The notes under the pieces are model-generated. The model searched no databases and was not told the origin of the DNA. It saw only the letters and a list, made by a program, of their open reading frames with translations. A program made the translations under genes and the position numbers. Below are positions 42,924 through 49,011 of a stretch of DNA of 64,000 nucleotides, piece by piece; within the stretch, counting starts at the first letter, position 1, and each line of letters starts with the position of its first letter. This stretch comes from Nitrosomonas sp. (GTDB taxonomy: Bacteria; Pseudomonadota; Gammaproteobacteria; Burkholderiales; Nitrosomonadaceae): assembly GCA_008015565.1 (NCBI GenBank), contig SSFV01000009.1, positions 2,916 to 66,915 on the forward strand, read 5' to 3'.

Positions 42924-44222
42924 TTAACTAGATTTACGTAATAGTTTCTTACTATCGTCTGATATAACGCTAATTGCTTTATTTCTTAATCGTGCTTTGG
43001 TGAAGAATTTATAAAAGGTTGGTTCATTGGCTTTTGCCAGTAATTTGAAAATTTCTTGTTGAGTCATACTGCGTTTTAATTGCAACAGTAAAGCGGTGAG
43101 CCCGGAAACATGCGCTGTAGCCAGAGAATTGCCTGATACGAAGTCATATGCCCCATCAGGTAACGTAGTTAATATGGCTTCACCCGGTGCAGATAGGACA
43201 AGGACGGGATCCTCATGACCGGGCTGCACAAATTTTTCACTGATGCTGCGAACGCCGATAACCCCGGGTTGCTGAGCAGGGAAGCCGGATTTCTCGTCAT
43301 GACTGTCAGCTTGCGAAGCCACGATGATAATTCCCTGTTGAATGGCCTTTTCGATTAATCTGGCTAAAAGGGGGTCGTAAGGTCCGGTTAAACTTAAATT
43401 AAGAATGTCGACTTTCTTTTCAATTGCTGTATTAATGGCTAAAGCTAGTGTAAAGCTATTACAAACTGCTTCCAGACTATTTGCTTTTACACTCCAGCAT
43501 GCTTTCAGTGAAACGACACGGCTATCCGGTGCAATGCCTACGATACCGTGCCCGTTATTTGGTTTTGCCGCAATCACACCGGCTATGGCAGTTCCATGGA
43601 TATCAACGGAATCAGCTGGTTTCTGCATGACAAAATCTTTGCTTTGATAGATTTGTCCTTTTAAATCAGGATGATTGATGTCTACTCCGGTATCGACAAT
43701 CGCAATGCTGATATTTTTGCCTGTAGATTGGCTGTGTATTTCGGCTAAGTTGATTGAATGTATATTAGTCTGTAGACGATAGTAAGGATCGTTATATGTA
43801 TCGGCCATCACTTTGAAGGTATTCATCGCCTGGACATTTCCGATTCTCTCGTCTTGTGACAGTGCAGTAATGATGTCAGTCAACGATTCTTCTTCATCTA
43901 CTAAATAAACAACACAATGTTCACCAATTTCTTTAATGGGCCATTGGGAAAGAATTTTTAGGTTGTAATCCGTTTCTATACTGGACGCAATTCTTTTACT
44001 CCAAGTAGAACTGCCGTAATCGCCCCGACGGCGATATATCTGATTAGTCATTCCAATTGGAACTTGGTTTATGTGATTGTCAGTGTAGGTTACTAAAATA
44101 ATACGTTCTGCGTGCCCGCTATCAAACACCTTGGGATCAACCGATAACTTTTCTTCCGCTTTGACAGGAAAGGCAGCAAACGTTATCAAGAGCAAAAAGA
44201 GGTAAGAGAAATGTGCTCTCAT
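42924..44222 (-). CDS. Exported S8 subtilisin-like serine peptidase
   Basis: IAIVDTG (Asp), IHGTAIAGVI (His), SGNSLATAHVSG (Ser), ILNLSLTGP. Signal peptide from ATG 44222. Confidence 0.88.
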   Translation of the reverse strand: MRAHFSYLFLLLITFAAFPVKAEEKLSVDPKVFDSGHAERIILVTYTDNHINQVPIGMTNQIYRRRGDYGSSTWSKRIASSIETDYNLKILSQWPIKEIGEHCVVYLVDEEESLTDIITALSQDERIGNVQAMNTFKVMADTYNDPYYRLQTNIHSINLAEIHSQSTGKNISIAIVDTGVDINHPDLKGQIYQSKDFVMQKPADSVDIHGTAIAGVIAAKPNNGHGIVGIAPDSRVVSLKACWSVKANSLEAVCNSFTLALAINTAIEKKVDILNLSLTGPYDPLLARLIEKAIQQGIIIVASQADSHDEKSGFPAQQPGVIGVRSISEKFVQPGHEDPVLVLSAPGEAILTTLPDGAYDFVSGNSLATAHVSGLTALLLQLKRSMTQQEIFKLLAKANEPTFYKFFTKARLRNKAISVISDDSKKLLRKSS

Positions 44223-44256
44223 TGAAAAGTGAAGTATTCGGTAATTAAATATCATT

Positions 44257-44967
44257 TTAATCAGCAGTGGATAGTCCGTGAGCCAGTTCTGCAAAAACTA
44301 CTATCTTGTTGTTACGCAAATTTGAGATAGCAGTCTTGACTTCCTGTAAACCGGTTTGTTCATTACCAATCTGAACTTCATAAACGCCATTTTGTAAAGG
44401 GCCTTTAATAATTTGACCCGATACGCTATGTAAAGCTGCAGATATTTGCTTTGGATTAGCGTGCTCGGAAAAAACGATACGAAGCATATTGTTTTTTTGT
44501 TCACCGTGAACAGGATTGGCAAGCGTTCTATATTCCCCTGTCAAATTAACTTGTTCGATCGTGGAGTTAGATAAAAAAGGCAACGCTAATAATACTAAGC
44601 TTGCAGCCAGCGCAGAAAATTGTATAGCACTCCAAAATTGCGGGGCAAAAAGTTTGCCTACATTTTTTGACTGAGCAGATTTGTCTTCCTGCGAATTGGA
44701 AAGAAACGGATGTTGATTCTCTATCCGTTTCTTCAATTGAGCGAAAGAAACTTGCGATACTTGTTGCAGTAGATCGGCTTGCTGCATTTTTGCAAGCAGC
44801 AATTGCTGTTGATTGAGCTCGAGTCTGCAGGCGATACAATGCCTAAGATGCGCTTTCACGATATCCTGCTCGTTAGGATCTAAAGAGTGATTGACATACC
44901 AAGGTAAAAGCTTCCAAATTTTTTGATGTTCGCTTTCGTTGCTTGTATTGATATTTGTGGATAACAT
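44257..44967 (-). CDS. Transmembrane anti-sigma factor, zf-HC2 type
   Basis: LLPWYVNHSL...HLRHCIAC zinc motif; single TM helix; periplasmic C-terminal domain; directly downstream of the ECF sigma. Confidence 0.87.
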   Translation of the reverse strand: MLSTNINTSNESEHQKIWKLLPWYVNHSLDPNEQDIVKAHLRHCIACRLELNQQQLLLAKMQQADLLQQVSQVSFAQLKKRIENQHPFLSNSQEDKSAQSKNVGKLFAPQFWSAIQFSALAASLVLLALPFLSNSTIEQVNLTGEYRTLANPVHGEQKNNMLRIVFSEHANPKQISAALHSVSGQIIKGPLQNGVYEVQIGNEQTGLQEVKTAISNLRNNKIVVFAELAHGLSTAD

Positions 44968-44971
44968 CTAA

Positions 44972-45583
44972 TTAACCTTTGCCATTATGTTCATGTAAAA
45001 ATTGCGCCAAAATTTTCCGTGCGTGAAACATTCTAGTTTTAACAGTATTCTCGGGACATTGCATGATTTCCGAGATTTCATTGTAATGCAGGCCTTGGAA
45101 GTATGTCATTTCTACAACAGCTCGCTGTTCAGTTGAAAGTTTGTTAAATGCTACGTGCAACCAATTGCTGACTTCCAATTCCGATACCCAGTTGGTGTTG
45201 CTGCTTGGAAAATAATCCAGGTTGTCGTCAAATTCATCCGAACGGTCTTCTCTTGTCGAATTTTGTTCGAAACTTTTAATTGATTTCAAATATGCAATAC
45301 CTAAAATCCATGTCGACGGGCGGCATACTTGGTTATAAGTAGAGGCTTTTTCCCAAACAACAAACATCACGTCATTTATAATTTCTTCAATGCAGTCATG
45401 ATGCCTAACTATATGAAATATAAATTGATAGAGACGATTATAATAGAGTTGATAAAGTTCTTCAAAAGCTTTGCCATCGCCTTCCGCCGTGTTAGCGATT
45501 AAACTTCGCTCTTTCTCGTGTTGTTGTTGAGAGCTAAAAAGATTTCGCATTTTCAGCCCTGCCGATTCATGATTTTGTTTCAT
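44972..45583 (-). CDS. ECF RNA polymerase sigma-70 factor
   Basis: AFEELYQLYYNRLY, region 2 STWILGIAY, region 4 LSTEQRAVV...GLHYNEISEIM.CPENTVKTRMFHAR. Confidence 0.93.
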   Translation of the reverse strand: MKQNHESAGLKMRNLFSSQQQHEKERSLIANTAEGDGKAFEELYQLYYNRLYQFIFHIVRHHDCIEEIINDVMFVVWEKASTYNQVCRPSTWILGIAYLKSIKSFEQNSTREDRSDEFDDNLDYFPSSNTNWVSELEVSNWLHVAFNKLSTEQRAVVEMTYFQGLHYNEISEIMQCPENTVKTRMFHARKILAQFLHEHNGKG

Positions 45584-45620
45584 AAAAAGCTAATGTATCC
45601 ATTTTTTCGTGTCTGCCTGT

Positions 45621-45648
45621 TTATTCCTGATAGGGAGAAAAAGGTTCA
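45621..45648 (-). promoter_or_regulatory. Candidate ECF autoregulatory promoter TGAACC-N16-GAATAA
   Basis: Coding strand TGAACCTTTTTCTCCCTATCAGGAATAA just upstream of the sigma ATG; a twin lies at 46628. Confidence 0.5.
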
Positions 45649-45670
45649 TAGTTTGGATAAAACTAAAGCA

Positions 45671-46393
45671 TTAAAATCCGACCGTAATGGAAAATAGCAC
45701 GCGATTGTCGACAATATGGGGATGAAATCCCCAGGGCTGATAGAGCTCTTCGTTTTTGTGTGCTGTCGCTGTATGAATGCCGTCATAGTAACGTACGTCG
45801 ACACCGATATGACGGGAAAGGTGAACGGTTAATCCCGAAGTCCAATAAAGATAGTTATATTGTAAAACTTGCTTTTGATTGTTATAACCCAACGTGCTTG
45901 AAAATTCGATAGATTGAGTAATCGGGTAACGGCCAGTGACTTCGAATCCGTATGCCATATGTTTTTGCTGGTAGCTATCCTCAGATACAAAGGCAATGGC
46001 TGTAATCAAATCCCGAAAATGGCTGTAGAAATAGAACTCATTGTAATCAGCATGTTGACCAAAAATTTTGCCATTATAAATATAGCGGGTTGCTTCGATA
46101 TTAAATCGCCAATCTTCGGACAGCTTGTAGGCATAACCTAAATATGGTCTGAATTCCAAGGTTGAGCGATTTTCGAATCCATGATCACCGAAGTTAACCG
46201 TTGATCCAAATGAACCAAAGTAAATGCCCGATTTAAATTCATAATCGATATTGGCTTGTGCTGCGGGCTTTTCATCACTTCTCGAGTAGCCTCGCCAGAA
46301 GTAATCCGTTGTGCCTGTCAAACTGCCGCGCAGCTCCGCATGACTAAGAAGCGGAAATGTAAAAATTAGTACGGCACACCAAAAAAATTTCAT
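45671..46393 (-). CDS. TorF-family / TIGR02001 putative outer-membrane protein
   Basis: Signal peptide from ATG 46393; TTDYFWRGYSRSDEKPAAQ..IDY, YxYxG..DYNEFY, C-terminal SITVGF. Confidence 0.82.
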   Translation of the reverse strand: MKFFWCAVLIFTFPLLSHAELRGSLTGTTDYFWRGYSRSDEKPAAQANIDYEFKSGIYFGSFGSTVNFGDHGFENRSTLEFRPYLGYAYKLSEDWRFNIEATRYIYNGKIFGQHADYNEFYFYSHFRDLITAIAFVSEDSYQQKHMAYGFEVTGRYPITQSIEFSSTLGYNNQKQVLQYNYLYWTSGLTVHLSRHIGVDVRYYDGIHTATAHKNEELYQPWGFHPHIVDNRVLFSITVGF

Positions 46394-46627
46394 GCTCCAG
46401 CAAGCACCGCATGGATTTGTTTCCCGCCAATACAAGTAATGAATAATCATTAATAAATTTTTACAGTAATGAGTAAAAATAGAGAGGTCATTGATAATTA
46501 ATAGGATTTATTTTTCTTGCTATATATATAATGTAGCTGTTCTAAAATTTTAATACCGGTATAAGAACAAAGTTTTTAATCAATTGCTAAAAAAATATAA
46601 TAACTATCAGTAGGACACTTTAACTGT

Positions 46628-46999: not shown

Positions 47000-47782
47000 A
47001 TGGAAACCTACGATGCTTTAATTGCAACACTTGCTTTAATGATGGGAGTCTCCTGGGCCAGTGGCATCAATCTCTATGCTGCATTGTTTGTGTTGGGGTG
47101 GGGCGGAGCGGCAGGTCACATCGTTTTACCCGATGAGCTGACAGTATTGCAAGATCCATTGGTAATTGGCGCGGCTGCTATCATGTATTTGATAGAATTC
47201 TTTGTCGATAAGATACCGGGTATGGATTCATTATGGGATTCCATACATACCTTTATTCGCATCCCGGCAGGAGCGATGCTGGCAGCGGGGGCGGTAGGCG
47301 ATGTGACGCCAGCATTGGAGATTGCCGCCGGCGTTTTGGGTGGCGGTATCGCAGCGGCGAGTCATGCCACAAAAGCCGGAACGCGGTTGCTGATTAATAC
47401 ATCTCCTGAGCCCGTCACAAATTGGTCAGCATCTCTCAGTGGAGATCTGCTAGTGCTTTCCGGGCTATGGGCGGCGTTAAAATATCCTGAAATTTTTCTG
47501 GTGTTATTTATCGTTTTTATCGGGATTGCAATCTGGGTACTTCCAAAATTATGGCTTTTAATCAAAGGAATGATAGCGCGAATAGGCAGATTCTTCGGCA
47601 TTGCGCAAACTTATCCCAGTTCGATTCAGAATGCTCCGGTTGCTGATATCGCGGGTTTGAACGAAAATCCTCAAATAACGGCTCTCGAAAGATTGCAGCA
47701 ACTGCGTGATAAGGGAGTACTGACAGAACATGAGTTCGAACAGCAAAAAAACCAAATTTTGAAGAACAATCAGTCGCAATAA
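47000..47782 (+). CDS. DUF4126 membrane protein with C-terminal SHOCT-like domain
   Basis: WASGINLYA, EFFVDKIPG.DSLWDSIHTFIRIPAGA, NTSPEP..NW..S; C-terminal LERLQQLRDKGVLTEHEFEQQKNQIL. Confidence 0.85.
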   Translation: METYDALIATLALMMGVSWASGINLYAALFVLGWGGAAGHIVLPDELTVLQDPLVIGAAAIMYLIEFFVDKIPGMDSLWDSIHTFIRIPAGAMLAAGAVGDVTPALEIAAGVLGGGIAAASHATKAGTRLLINTSPEPVTNWSASLSGDLLVLSGLWAALKYPEIFLVLFIVFIGIAIWVLPKLWLLIKGMIARIGRFFGIAQTYPSSIQNAPVADIAGLNENPQITALERLQQLRDKGVLTEHEFEQQKNQILKNNQSQ

Positions 47783-47784
47783 AT

Positions 47785-48804
47785 TCAGGTTTTACTGGAT
47801 AACGTATCGAGTTTCTTCAAGATTGCGGTTTGTAATTTATCATTTACCCACGCTTCTCTGGGCATCGCCCAAAGTGTTGGTTGGGCAAAAGAATAGCACT
47901 GCAATGCGTTTTCTTCCGGCATGATAATGATTTCAGTATCCACTGTTTGGAAATCCTTTGCATGGAATTGATGATTTTCGGAAAAAGATTGAAATTGCGC
48001 ATTTAACCCTGATTTTTGTATCAAATCAAAGAACCAGTATGTGTTTTCTTCGCTCGCCATTGCATGAATACGGTCATTAATAAAATCTTTAAGTGGACGG
48101 CGGATTTCCGGATTAAGCACGTTATAGGCAACTTCATTCGCTAACATCATATTGTAGGTCCTTGTCCACTTACTCACATCGATCTGATGATTTTGCTTCC
48201 CGCTCGTGACAATAAGCTCAATTTTATTCAAATGTCGCAAAGGAGTTCTAAGCGGACCGGCAGGCACTAACAAGCCATTGCCCAGATTGTGTTCATTAAA
48301 ATCGACAATTGCTATCTCAACGTCGCGTTCGAGGCGATAATATTGCATGCCATCATTACATAGGATGATATTGCAGGCCGGATGCGCATCCAACAGCGCT
48401 TGGGCAACCGCAATCCGATCACTGCCAACCCAAACAGGACACGTTTGTTGATAATGATGGGCGAGCAAGAATATTTTTCCGCCGACCATATTGGGGCTGG
48501 TGCTCGGAGTTACCTCAGCAGGTGATCCTGGGTTATCAAAATTGCCACGAGTAATGATTCCCGGGTGATAGCCATTTCTGAGCAGGCAATTGATAAGCCA
48601 AAACATAAAAGGTGTTTTGCCGTCATCATCGATGCTGATACTGTCTATCACAATGACAGGAACTGTCAGTTTGACCGATGGGAAAATTTCTAACCAGTAG
48701 CATAGTTTTTTGATTGTTAAATAACAACCATAGATTACACTCAACGGCCACAGTAAAACATGAAGGGGCGTAATGCGGTGCCAGTAGAGCTCAGATAGTT
48801 TCAT
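47785..48804 (-). CDS. LpxK (tetraacyldisaccharide 4'-kinase)-like protein with degenerate catalytic motifs
   Basis: LpxK scaffold (LLWPLS.IYG, PVIVI...GKTP, RLERD.EI, GNG.L.PAGPLR) but motif substitutions throughout; see findings. Confidence 0.8.
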   Translation of the reverse strand: MKLSELYWHRITPLHVLLWPLSVIYGCYLTIKKLCYWLEIFPSVKLTVPVIVIDSISIDDDGKTPFMFWLINCLLRNGYHPGIITRGNFDNPGSPAEVTPSTSPNMVGGKIFLLAHHYQQTCPVWVGSDRIAVAQALLDAHPACNIILCNDGMQYYRLERDVEIAIVDFNEHNLGNGLLVPAGPLRTPLRHLNKIELIVTSGKQNHQIDVSKWTRTYNMMLANEVAYNVLNPEIRRPLKDFINDRIHAMASEENTYWFFDLIQKSGLNAQFQSFSENHQFHAKDFQTVDTEIIIMPEENALQCYSFAQPTLWAMPREAWVNDKLQTAILKKLDTLSSKT

Positions 48805-49011
48805 ATTTCACAGCTATTCAAGATATAGTTACAAGACTTTACACATTTTTTGGATCAAAGTCGCTTTTTCTCGCGTGAAAGTTGCCTATTTAAAATTTGA
48901 TTTATGTATCATCCGGTTGAATATTTTATATATTTCCATTAAAAGCAACTGGAATTGATGCCATCATTTAAATGCGAATTCGATTGTAATGGCAGTAAAA
49001 ATGAAAAAATT

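Follow-up and report, generated by a model that had tools for sequence, protein, structure and literature searches.

What keeps an lpxK gene in a bacterium that lacks the rest of the lipid A pathway? The question is raised by an open reading frame (ORF) in a stretch of 64,000 nucleotides from Nitrosomonas sp. (assembly GCA_008015565.1, contig SSFV01000009.1, positions 2,916 to 66,915 of the forward strand), hereafter the window. The ORF, at 47785-48804 on the minus strand, encodes a homologue of LpxK, a kinase that counts as essential, and as a drug target, among Gram-negative bacteria. We find that it is the sole copy, that the enzymes which would make its substrate are absent, that its catalytic residues are replaced, and that its fold, N-terminal helix and PAGPLR loop are nonetheless under purifying selection. 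The best reading is that the gene is a vertically inherited lpxK relic in a lineage that lost the Raetz lipid A pathway. Its product, pseudo-LpxK, is probably an orphan LpxK that no longer catalyses and has been retained for some other, membrane-associated role.

A first-pass annotation, made from the letters alone, had described a full-length, 339-residue LpxK homologue with its scaffold kept, and both family models and fold comparison bear this out. The Pfam model PF02606 aligns end to end (residues 15-332 on profile positions 2-327/328; 229 bits, E 1e-67, cut-off 27 bits), and the NCBIfam lpxK equivalog model TIGR00682 gives 124.8 bits, above its cut-off of 92 bits. An AlphaFold2 (AF2) model built on 117 clade members (predicted local distance difference test, pLDDT, 82; predicted template-modelling score, pTM, 0.81) has the two-domain LpxK fold with an N-terminal membrane helix. 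Its top Foldseek matches are A. aeolicus LpxK structures (4ehy/4lkv, E 4e-20, template-modelling score, TM, 0.75-0.85). The PF02606 score is far under that of active relatives: Nitrosomonas LpxKs score 173-278 bits, whereas the order's other families mostly reach 330-377 bits, two divergent but motif-canonical LpxKs among them scoring 251-273 bits. The landmarks of the gene are as follows.

47785-48804, minus strand: pseudo-LpxK ORF, the genome's sole LpxK homologue (Pfam, NCBIfam, AF2, Foldseek).
48691-48804, minus strand: N-terminal membrane-association helix, residues 1-38, beginning MKLSELYWHRITPLHVLLWPLS (conservation and regional substitution rates; helix predicted at 13-37).
48610-48645, minus strand: degenerate Walker A/P-loop DSISIDDDGKTP, residues 54-65 (alignment with canonical LpxKs).
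48538-48552, minus strand: TRGNF, residues 85-89, remnant of the SRGY lipid-binding motif (alignment).
48475-48483, minus strand: GGK, residues 108-110, replacing GDE (alignment; residue roles from PMC6286764).
48340-48357, minus strand: NDGMQY, residues 150-155, remnant of the Walker B motif DDGxQH (alignment).
48247-48279, minus strand: NGLLVPAGPLR loop, residues 176-186 (clade conservation; low pLDDT).
47971-47982, minus strand: SENH, residues 275-278, replacing PDHH (alignment).
47896-47919, minus strand: PEENALQC, residues 296-303, replacing TEKDAVKC (alignment).
47788-47847, minus strand: C-terminal helix ending in LQTAILKKLDTLSSKT, homologous to the linker before a fused Trm112/YcaR domain in other Nitrosomonas lineages.
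48805-48954, no strand assigned: divergent intergenic region of 150 bp between the pseudo-LpxK gene and an alpha/beta-hydrolase gene (gene layout).

To describe the active site we compared 69 distinct Nitrosomonas orthologues with a set of 13 canonical LpxKs, all from the same order but not the same family, using A. aeolicus numbering unless a window residue is named. The canonical sequences read GN[IV]T.GG.GKTP, SRGY, GDE, DDG[LM]QH, AGIGNP, FPDH and TEKDA[VI]K. At these positions the window protein has DSISIDDDGKTP, TRGNF, GGK, NDGMQY, ASEENT, FSENH and PEENALQ, and all seven changes had been quoted exactly by the first-pass annotation. The functional weight of these positions is known from A. 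aeolicus LpxK, in which K51A and T52A each cut kcat about 3000-fold, H261A cuts it 850-fold, and mutants of D138 and D139 cut it 4700- and 8100-fold (PMC6286764). In the same enzyme H261 is the catalytic base and is tuned by D99, E100 binds Mg and the gamma-phosphate, H143 is a ligand of the 1-phosphate, K280 contacts the nucleotide ribose and phosphates, and the effect of R171A makes R171 a determinant of the KM for the lipid substrate (PMC6286764).

Measured against these roles, little of the catalytic apparatus survives. The window P-loop, DSISIDDDGKT, carries G42D, N43S, G47D, G48D and S49D and keeps only G50, K51 (window K63) and T52 (window T64) of the pattern, leaving no intact Walker A motif (GN.(S/T).GG.GKT). 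Across the orthologues G42 is always Asp (window D54, 69/69), N43 is Ser in 66/69 (window S55), G48 is kept in none, and one to three P-loop residues are acidic in 62/69. Neither the H261-D99 dyad, now N277 and G109, nor the Walker B pair with its E100 ligand is present in the window, where D139 remains while D138 is N150 and E100 is K110. The clade agrees: D99 is kept in 5/69, E100 in 2/69 (Lys in 56), D138 in 15/69, H143 (Tyr in the window) in 3/69, D260 in 8/69, H261 in 6/69 and K280 in 5/69, with Glu at the last position in 62/69, including window E298. Better preserved are K51 (65/69, Arg in the other four), T52 (59/69), D139 (54/69) and R171 (window R186, 66/69). In the SRGY remnant R72 stands as window R86 and Y74 has become Asn; across the clade the Arg is found in 47/69 and the Tyr in 18/69.

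Seven residues can be called essential, in that kcat falls 850- to 8100-fold when they are mutated. At most five of them survive in any one orthologue, and three (K51, T52, D139) in the window protein. More broadly, 44 window positions are invariant in the 13 canonical sequences, and 27 of these are lost or relaxed in the Nitrosomonas clade, all catalytic ones included; the motif loss is therefore not chance. The 17 that are kept are structural or lie on the lipid face (R119, Q142, R160, E163, and G175 and the PAGPLR loop with R171). Replacement also follows a pattern across the cleft: a reciprocal charge swap, E100 to Lys or Arg together with K280 to Glu, occurs in 58/69 orthologues, and in Aquifex LpxK these two residues approach the ATP phosphates from opposite domains (PMC6286764).

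Is a working copy held elsewhere? The first-pass annotation had called the gene a probable pseudokinase paralog, with a canonical lpxK elsewhere in the genome. The genome that carries the window (G000) is 2.61 Mb and 91% complete; related contigs carry Nitrosomonas names, with 89% identity to an 'uncultured beta proteobacterium AOB' and 58-68% to Nitrosomonas sp. Nm84, N. ureae and N. supralitoralis. In G000 the Pfam model finds the window locus only, plus a 12-bit noise match, and tblastn with five canonical betaproteobacterial LpxKs again returns the window locus only. Across the genus, searches of about 75 Nitrosomonas genomes with the Pfam profile and a clade-specific one likewise turned up no second lpxK. 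Exactly one LpxK match is present in 51 of 52 Nitrosomonas species (23 of 24 in an earlier sample), and therefore the window gene is a genus-wide single orthologue, not a paralog. The pseudoenzyme part of the original claim is a reasonable reading; its paralog part falls. Beyond the genus, neither Pfam nor the Nitrosomonas-specific profile finds an LpxK in the three sister genera at E <= 0.01.

The pathway around the enzyme is also gone. We surveyed 81 genomes of the GTDB family Nitrosomonadaceae (four genera), with E. coli, Caulobacter and others as positive controls. LpxC and LpxB are each present in 0/81 and WaaA in 1/81. As a closer control, 15 of the order's 16 neighbouring families sampled have LpxC, against 0 of 25 Nitrosomonas, and a permissive tblastn of four neighbour-family LpxCs against G000 gave no match. 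LpxA was found in none of the Nitrosomonas sampled. These results agree with Opiyo et al. (2010, PMC3087551), whose passages on these genes report lpxK as the only one of nine Kdo2-lipid A genes in N. europaea, with LpxD and LpxH among those absent, and lpxA as the only one in Nitrosospira multiformis. With LpxA, LpxB and LpxC absent from genome and genus, there is no LpxK substrate (DSMP) for the protein to act on.

The missing pathway bears on two of the readings first proposed for this gene. One had it as a non-catalytic paralog beside a canonical lpxK, binding or sensing lipid A precursors, or tuning the flux of lipopolysaccharide (LPS). Lost catalytic motifs in an intact frame are what that model would predict, but there is no second lpxK in any sampled Nitrosomonas genome, and without LpxC, LpxB, WaaA (one odd hit in the family aside) or LpxA there are no lipid A precursors, so a role in precursor sensing or LPS flux cannot apply. 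G000 is incomplete, but closed genomes from the genus are no different, and we regard this model as hardly credible. The other held that a sole lpxK would be an active, divergent kinase. The gene is indeed the only lpxK in its genome, but that fact does not lead to the conclusion attached to it, since the pathway that would supply the substrate is missing.

Several isolated genes in the family resemble parts of the pathway. An orphan LpxA homologue (about 92 bits, PF13720) is limited within the family to a single sister genus (g19), probably Nitrosospira, where 8 of about 19 genomes have it (for example L115 and L116); it forms a second relic of the Raetz pathway, independent of the first. The only WaaA-type Glycos_transf_N match (L066, G011:C72:4308-4838, 181 bits) lies inside a 744-residue open frame and is missing from the closely related G084; it could be a horizontal transfer, a fusion protein or contamination. 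The only KdsB-like gene of G000, of the CMP-Kdo synthetase family (C100:9128-9949), is probably a paralogous cytidylyltransferase and not a Kdo enzyme: it shares 32-35% identity with KdsB of the neighbours, against 46-80% for exbB, exbD and adk, which belong to the same ancestral locus.

One part of the LPS machinery has stayed. All 61 of the Nitrosomonadaceae genomes searched for LptD have it (PF04453, about 300-385 bits), G000 at C115:26760-27905. The LPS translocon is thus kept without the lipid A pathway, and some large outer-leaflet lipid is therefore probably still made. Since N. eutropha carries orthologues of ceramide/CPG2 (phosphosphingolipid) genes (PMC11324152), a sphingolipid-type lipid is one candidate for the Lpt cargo of these nitrifiers.

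If the enzyme is dead and its pathway lost, the gene might simply be decaying. We measured the ratio of nonsynonymous to synonymous substitution rates (dN/dS) by the Nei-Gojobori method for 79 pairs with a synonymous divergence (dS) of 0.05-1.2. The ratio is 0.07-0.24, median 0.14, and 0.147 for the window against its nearest relative. For 22 non-overlapping pairs taken together the value is 0.163, with every region at 0.12-0.19, and forms with and without a fused Trm112/YcaR domain, described below, have alike values. In those genome pairs for which the adjacent hydrolase gene was also measured, the hydrolase has 0.05-0.13; pseudo-LpxK thus evolves under somewhat looser constraint than an ordinary enzyme, yet far from neutrally. 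The frame is intact in 51 of 52 species, spanning pairs with saturated dS. The claim that the catalytic apparatus was lost without frameshifts, under selection, thus holds. Clear homology to an active family, loss of experimentally essential residues and purifying selection on a widely intact ORF together give the protein the marks of a pseudoenzyme.

Neutral decay after the loss of LPS would suit a vanished pathway, sister genera that have lost the gene and a W69 stop codon in one species. Against it stand the full-length frame in all but one species, a dN/dS of about 0.15, 39 positions at least 97% conserved, and a confidently predicted fold. Neutral decay is already contradicted by the data and we consider it very unlikely; the more specific idea of a strain-specific pseudogene with dN/dS near 1, which the first-pass annotation had named as its own refutation, is at odds with a clade-wide gene.

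The constraint has moved. Of the 39 highly conserved positions, 13 lie in residues 1-22. The N-terminal part, about 30 residues, is the most variable region of canonical LpxKs (mean entropy 2.01 bits) and the most conserved of the Nitrosomonas clade (0.88 bits, against 1.54 bits for the whole of pseudo-LpxK), and the N-terminal helix has the lowest regional dN/dS, 0.117. Constraint has therefore shifted to this helix. The PAGPLR loop, common to active LpxK, is invariant in the clade: G175, N176, G177, P181, A182, G183, P184 and L185 are each at least 97% conserved. The C-terminal domain, which contacts the nucleotide and binds adenine in active LpxK, is the least conserved region.

Could the scaffold have been retooled, with a new active site that modifies another membrane lipid, such as a ceramide-type or other glycolipid exported by Lpt? 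K63 and T64 are mostly retained, D54 and S55 are invariant or nearly so after replacing Gly and Asn, the lipid loop does not vary, LptD is universal in the family genomes, which makes a large outer-leaflet lipid probable, and N. eutropha has the ceramide and phosphosphingolipid orthologues (PMC11324152). Yet besides D54 and S55 no new invariant polar cluster replaces what was lost. The positions of the general base, the Mg ligand, Walker B and the P-loop glycines vary, with 5-8 residue types each and a mean entropy of 1.37-1.42 bits, against 1.54 bits protein-wide and 0 in canonical LpxKs; such variation is better explained by relaxed constraint on a defunct site than by a new active site. In four species the Walker Lys has become Arg, and the adenine-binding domain is the part that has been conserved least. 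By established P-loop chemistry, acidic residues in that loop should repel phosphate. Three sister genera, moreover, keep LptD without a trace of the gene. We therefore rate a retooled enzyme as unlikely.

How did the genus come by such a gene? In a maximum-likelihood tree all Nitrosomonas sequences form one clade (support 100/100) on a stem of 0.58 substitutions per site, nested within betaproteobacterial LpxKs. Horizontal acquisition was considered and rejected, given this nesting and the retained ancestral linkage to ycaR, and the clade descends vertically from an ancestral lpxK-ycaR locus. Each of the 13 canonical relatives has a Trm112/YcaR gene overlapping the lpxK 3' end, and the canonical betaproteobacterial order is exbB-exbD-lpxK-ycaR-kdsB-adk. 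That context is dissolved in G000, where the genes of the locus lie on separate contigs and the window gene sits between a DUF4126 gene and the hydrolase gene. The linkage survives in another form: 24 of the 69 orthologues are in-frame LpxK-Trm112/YcaR fusions of 387-399 residues (Pfam Trm112p, 65.8 bits). Fused forms occupy basal branches, intermediate lineages have divergent or truncated Trm112 tails, and in the window lineage the tail is gone. Modelling of one fused orthologue (pTM 0.81, Trm112 domain pLDDT 80-90) offers weak evidence that the two domains may pack together.

The fusions invite the proposal that pseudo-LpxK persists only as a carrier, or translation vehicle, of YcaR, or on account of an overlapping regulatory sequence, with unfused copies too young to have decayed. 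In basal fused lineages the genome's only YcaR is indeed the C-terminal domain of this protein (for example in G053, G095 and G049), and the tree and the truncated tails indicate that the fusion is ancestral. But the unfused clade, more than 35 species including that of the window, has a standalone ycaR and still shows dN/dS of 0.10-0.17, no frameshifts and saturated synonymous divergence, and the strongest constraint falls on the N-terminal helix and the PAGPLR loop, not on the 3' end. A carrier role is on this evidence improbable. The standalone gene in G000 (C50:109-291, minus strand, 60 residues) lies directly downstream of gidA-gidB-parA-parB, and its product is 69% identical to the domain fused to pseudo-LpxK in other Nitrosomonas. 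YcaR is found in 79 of 81 family genomes, including genera without any LpxK; it is near-universal in the family, and its function is therefore independent of LPS.

Taken together, every functional LpxK criterion that we tested fails: Walker A, Walker B, E100, the His-Asp dyad, substrate availability and genomic context. Retention of a catalytically dead, orphan LpxK for a non-catalytic role at the membrane is the explanation we favour as probable, and it can be given a provisional physical form. The protein would no longer phosphorylate anything. It would be a peripheral pseudoenzyme on the cytoplasmic face of the inner membrane, held there by the conserved N-terminal helix. The former nucleotide cleft may be neutralised, filled and probably closed by the protein's own side chains, with the acidic P-loop residues D59, D60 and D61 facing K63 and the swapped pair K110 (E100) and E298 (K280) bridging the domains. 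The flexible PAGPLR loop, together with the cleft and the partly kept arginines R86, R130 and R186, could then form a binding site for the head group of a lipid or for a protein partner. YcaR/Trm112, a small zinc-ribbon protein, was possibly the ancestral partner. It is the one candidate for which there is evidence: the ycaR gene overlaps that of LpxK in every relative and, in basal Nitrosomonas, is joined to it in frame. Whatever the role, it would be useful and not indispensable, because sister genera, one Nitrosomonas genome (G080) and possibly another (G141) have lost the intact copy. A more specific version, which we consider a long shot, has the dead LpxK as a lipid-binding adaptor on the cytoplasmic face that hands a sphingolipid-type or other glycolipid to a flippase or the Lpt route; if true, this would be the first known pseudoenzyme of envelope lipid trafficking.

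Several observations weigh against a retained non-catalytic role or against parts of the mechanism just outlined. The Walker Lys and Thr and the second Walker B Asp are mostly kept and, judged from the alignment, could still permit some binding of nucleotide or phosphate. The self-occluded cleft and the K110-E298 bridge are drawn from the sequence and the published Aquifex contacts. The gene has left no trace in the 99%-complete genome G080, and in G141 (L046, G141:C14) a single TGG to TAG change turns the conserved W69 of an otherwise intact pseudo-LpxK into a stop; both may be recent losses or assembly errors. YcaR occurs in genera without pseudo-LpxK, so that partnership is not obligatory. 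No conserved functional neighbourhood was found around 45 orthologues, whose neighbours include aspartokinase, ValRS, Pgi, SMC/ZipA and Lnt. The sole conserved neighbour is the divergent alpha/beta hydrolase of the unfused clade, and a functional link to it was dropped, as the hydrolase gene is present in genera without pseudo-LpxK and missing in some genomes with it. Signs of expression are likewise sparse: the 150-bp intergenic region at 48805-48954 presumably holds the pseudo-LpxK promoter, but a sigma-70 consensus scan of the minus strand upstream of the gene gave no convincing site, no strong Shine-Dalgarno sequence was found for it, and the protein is not named in the supplements of a proteome study of three ammonia-oxidizing bacteria.

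The surroundings of the gene in the window have features of their own. On the plus strand at 47000-47782, a DUF4126 membrane protein with a C-terminal SHOCT domain is encoded convergently with pseudo-LpxK, with two bases between the stop codons. No terminator-like hairpin was found, and the convergent arrangement recurs in only 7 of about 45 loci. On the minus strand at 42924-46450, genes for an extracytoplasmic function (ECF) sigma factor (203 residues), a putative anti-sigma factor (236 residues) and a subtilisin-like S8 peptidase (456 residues) run in the same direction, preceded by a gene for a Gcw_chp outer-membrane beta-barrel (259 residues); the arrangement is kept in the closest relative, L032. 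All of these annotations save Gcw_chp were made by eye from the translations.

We then asked whether the degenerate type occurs outside the genus. A profile search of 1.84 billion representative proteins was ranked by likeness to the Nitrosomonas profile, a design that could miss distant independent cases. Within its best 150 sequences the degenerate type comprised Nitrosomonas-type sequences and one metagenome protein (P0217), and 141 of the 148 newly returned sequences screened carry canonical LpxK motifs. The metagenome protein (P0217/P0270, 336 residues, on Logan contigs of 1.9-3.3 kb) is an independently and partly degenerate LpxK. Its P-loop is nearly intact (GSATIGGKGKTP) and TEKDAVQC is kept, with SRGY, GDE, DDG, AGIGNP and PDH lost.

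Set beside known systems, the protein is closest to LpxK itself (tetraacyldisaccharide-1-phosphate 4'-kinase, EC 2.7.1.130; PF02606; A. aeolicus structures 4EHX, 4EHY, 4ITL and 4LKV). It shares with it full-length homology, the two-domain fold, the N-terminal membrane helix, the PAGPLR loop, part of the R72/R119/R171 set and the ancestral lpxK-ycaR locus. It differs in its Asp residues in place of P-loop glycines, in the loss of D99, E100, D138, H143, H261 and K280, in a genus with no pathway producing DSMP, and in a nucleotide-binding C-terminal domain that evolves freely. Like other pseudoenzymes (pseudokinases, dead P-loop NTPase scaffolds and regulators), it is a homologue of active enzymes that has lost catalytic residues and kept its fold under purifying selection. 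Most described pseudoenzymes, however, coexist with an active paralog or the pathway they regulate, whereas Nitrosomonas LpxK is an orphan whose pathway is gone. Diderms without LPS, such as Sphingomonas with its sphingolipids and Caulobacter fur mutants that can lose lipid A and have anionic sphingolipids, offer a parallel in an outer membrane that lacks lipid A; we know of no LpxK relic described in either.

An orphan lpxK was already noted in N. europaea in 2010. It belongs to the same gene family and is the same phenomenon, and the passages in question of Opiyo et al. treat it as a sign of ongoing genome reduction (PMC3087551). To those passages our analysis adds the dismantled active site, genus-wide purifying selection, loss in sister genera, the series of YcaR fusions and the retention of LptD. 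In the literature library searched we found no report of a dead LpxK active site, of selection on it or of its fusion history, and nothing on YcaR function, an LpxK-YcaR link or an LpxK pseudoenzyme.

A practical consequence concerns annotation. Public records (NCBI, UniRef, JGI) label these proteins 'tetraacyldisaccharide 4'-kinase', a name the Nitrosomonas protein should not bear; metabolic reconstructions may infer lipid A synthesis from the kinase label, and the annotation should be corrected. The findings also point to testable questions: what the Lpt cargo of Nitrosomonadaceae is, and whether, in ordinary bacteria, there is a physical interaction of YcaR with LpxK. For the biology of the group, a genus of environmentally important nitrifiers keeps LpxK only as a dead orphan scaffold. 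It provides a natural example of one enzyme's fate after pathway loss, in a graded series that runs from an active enzyme with an overlapping ycaR, through a fused dead form and a fused form with a decaying tail, to a standalone dead form and, finally, loss.

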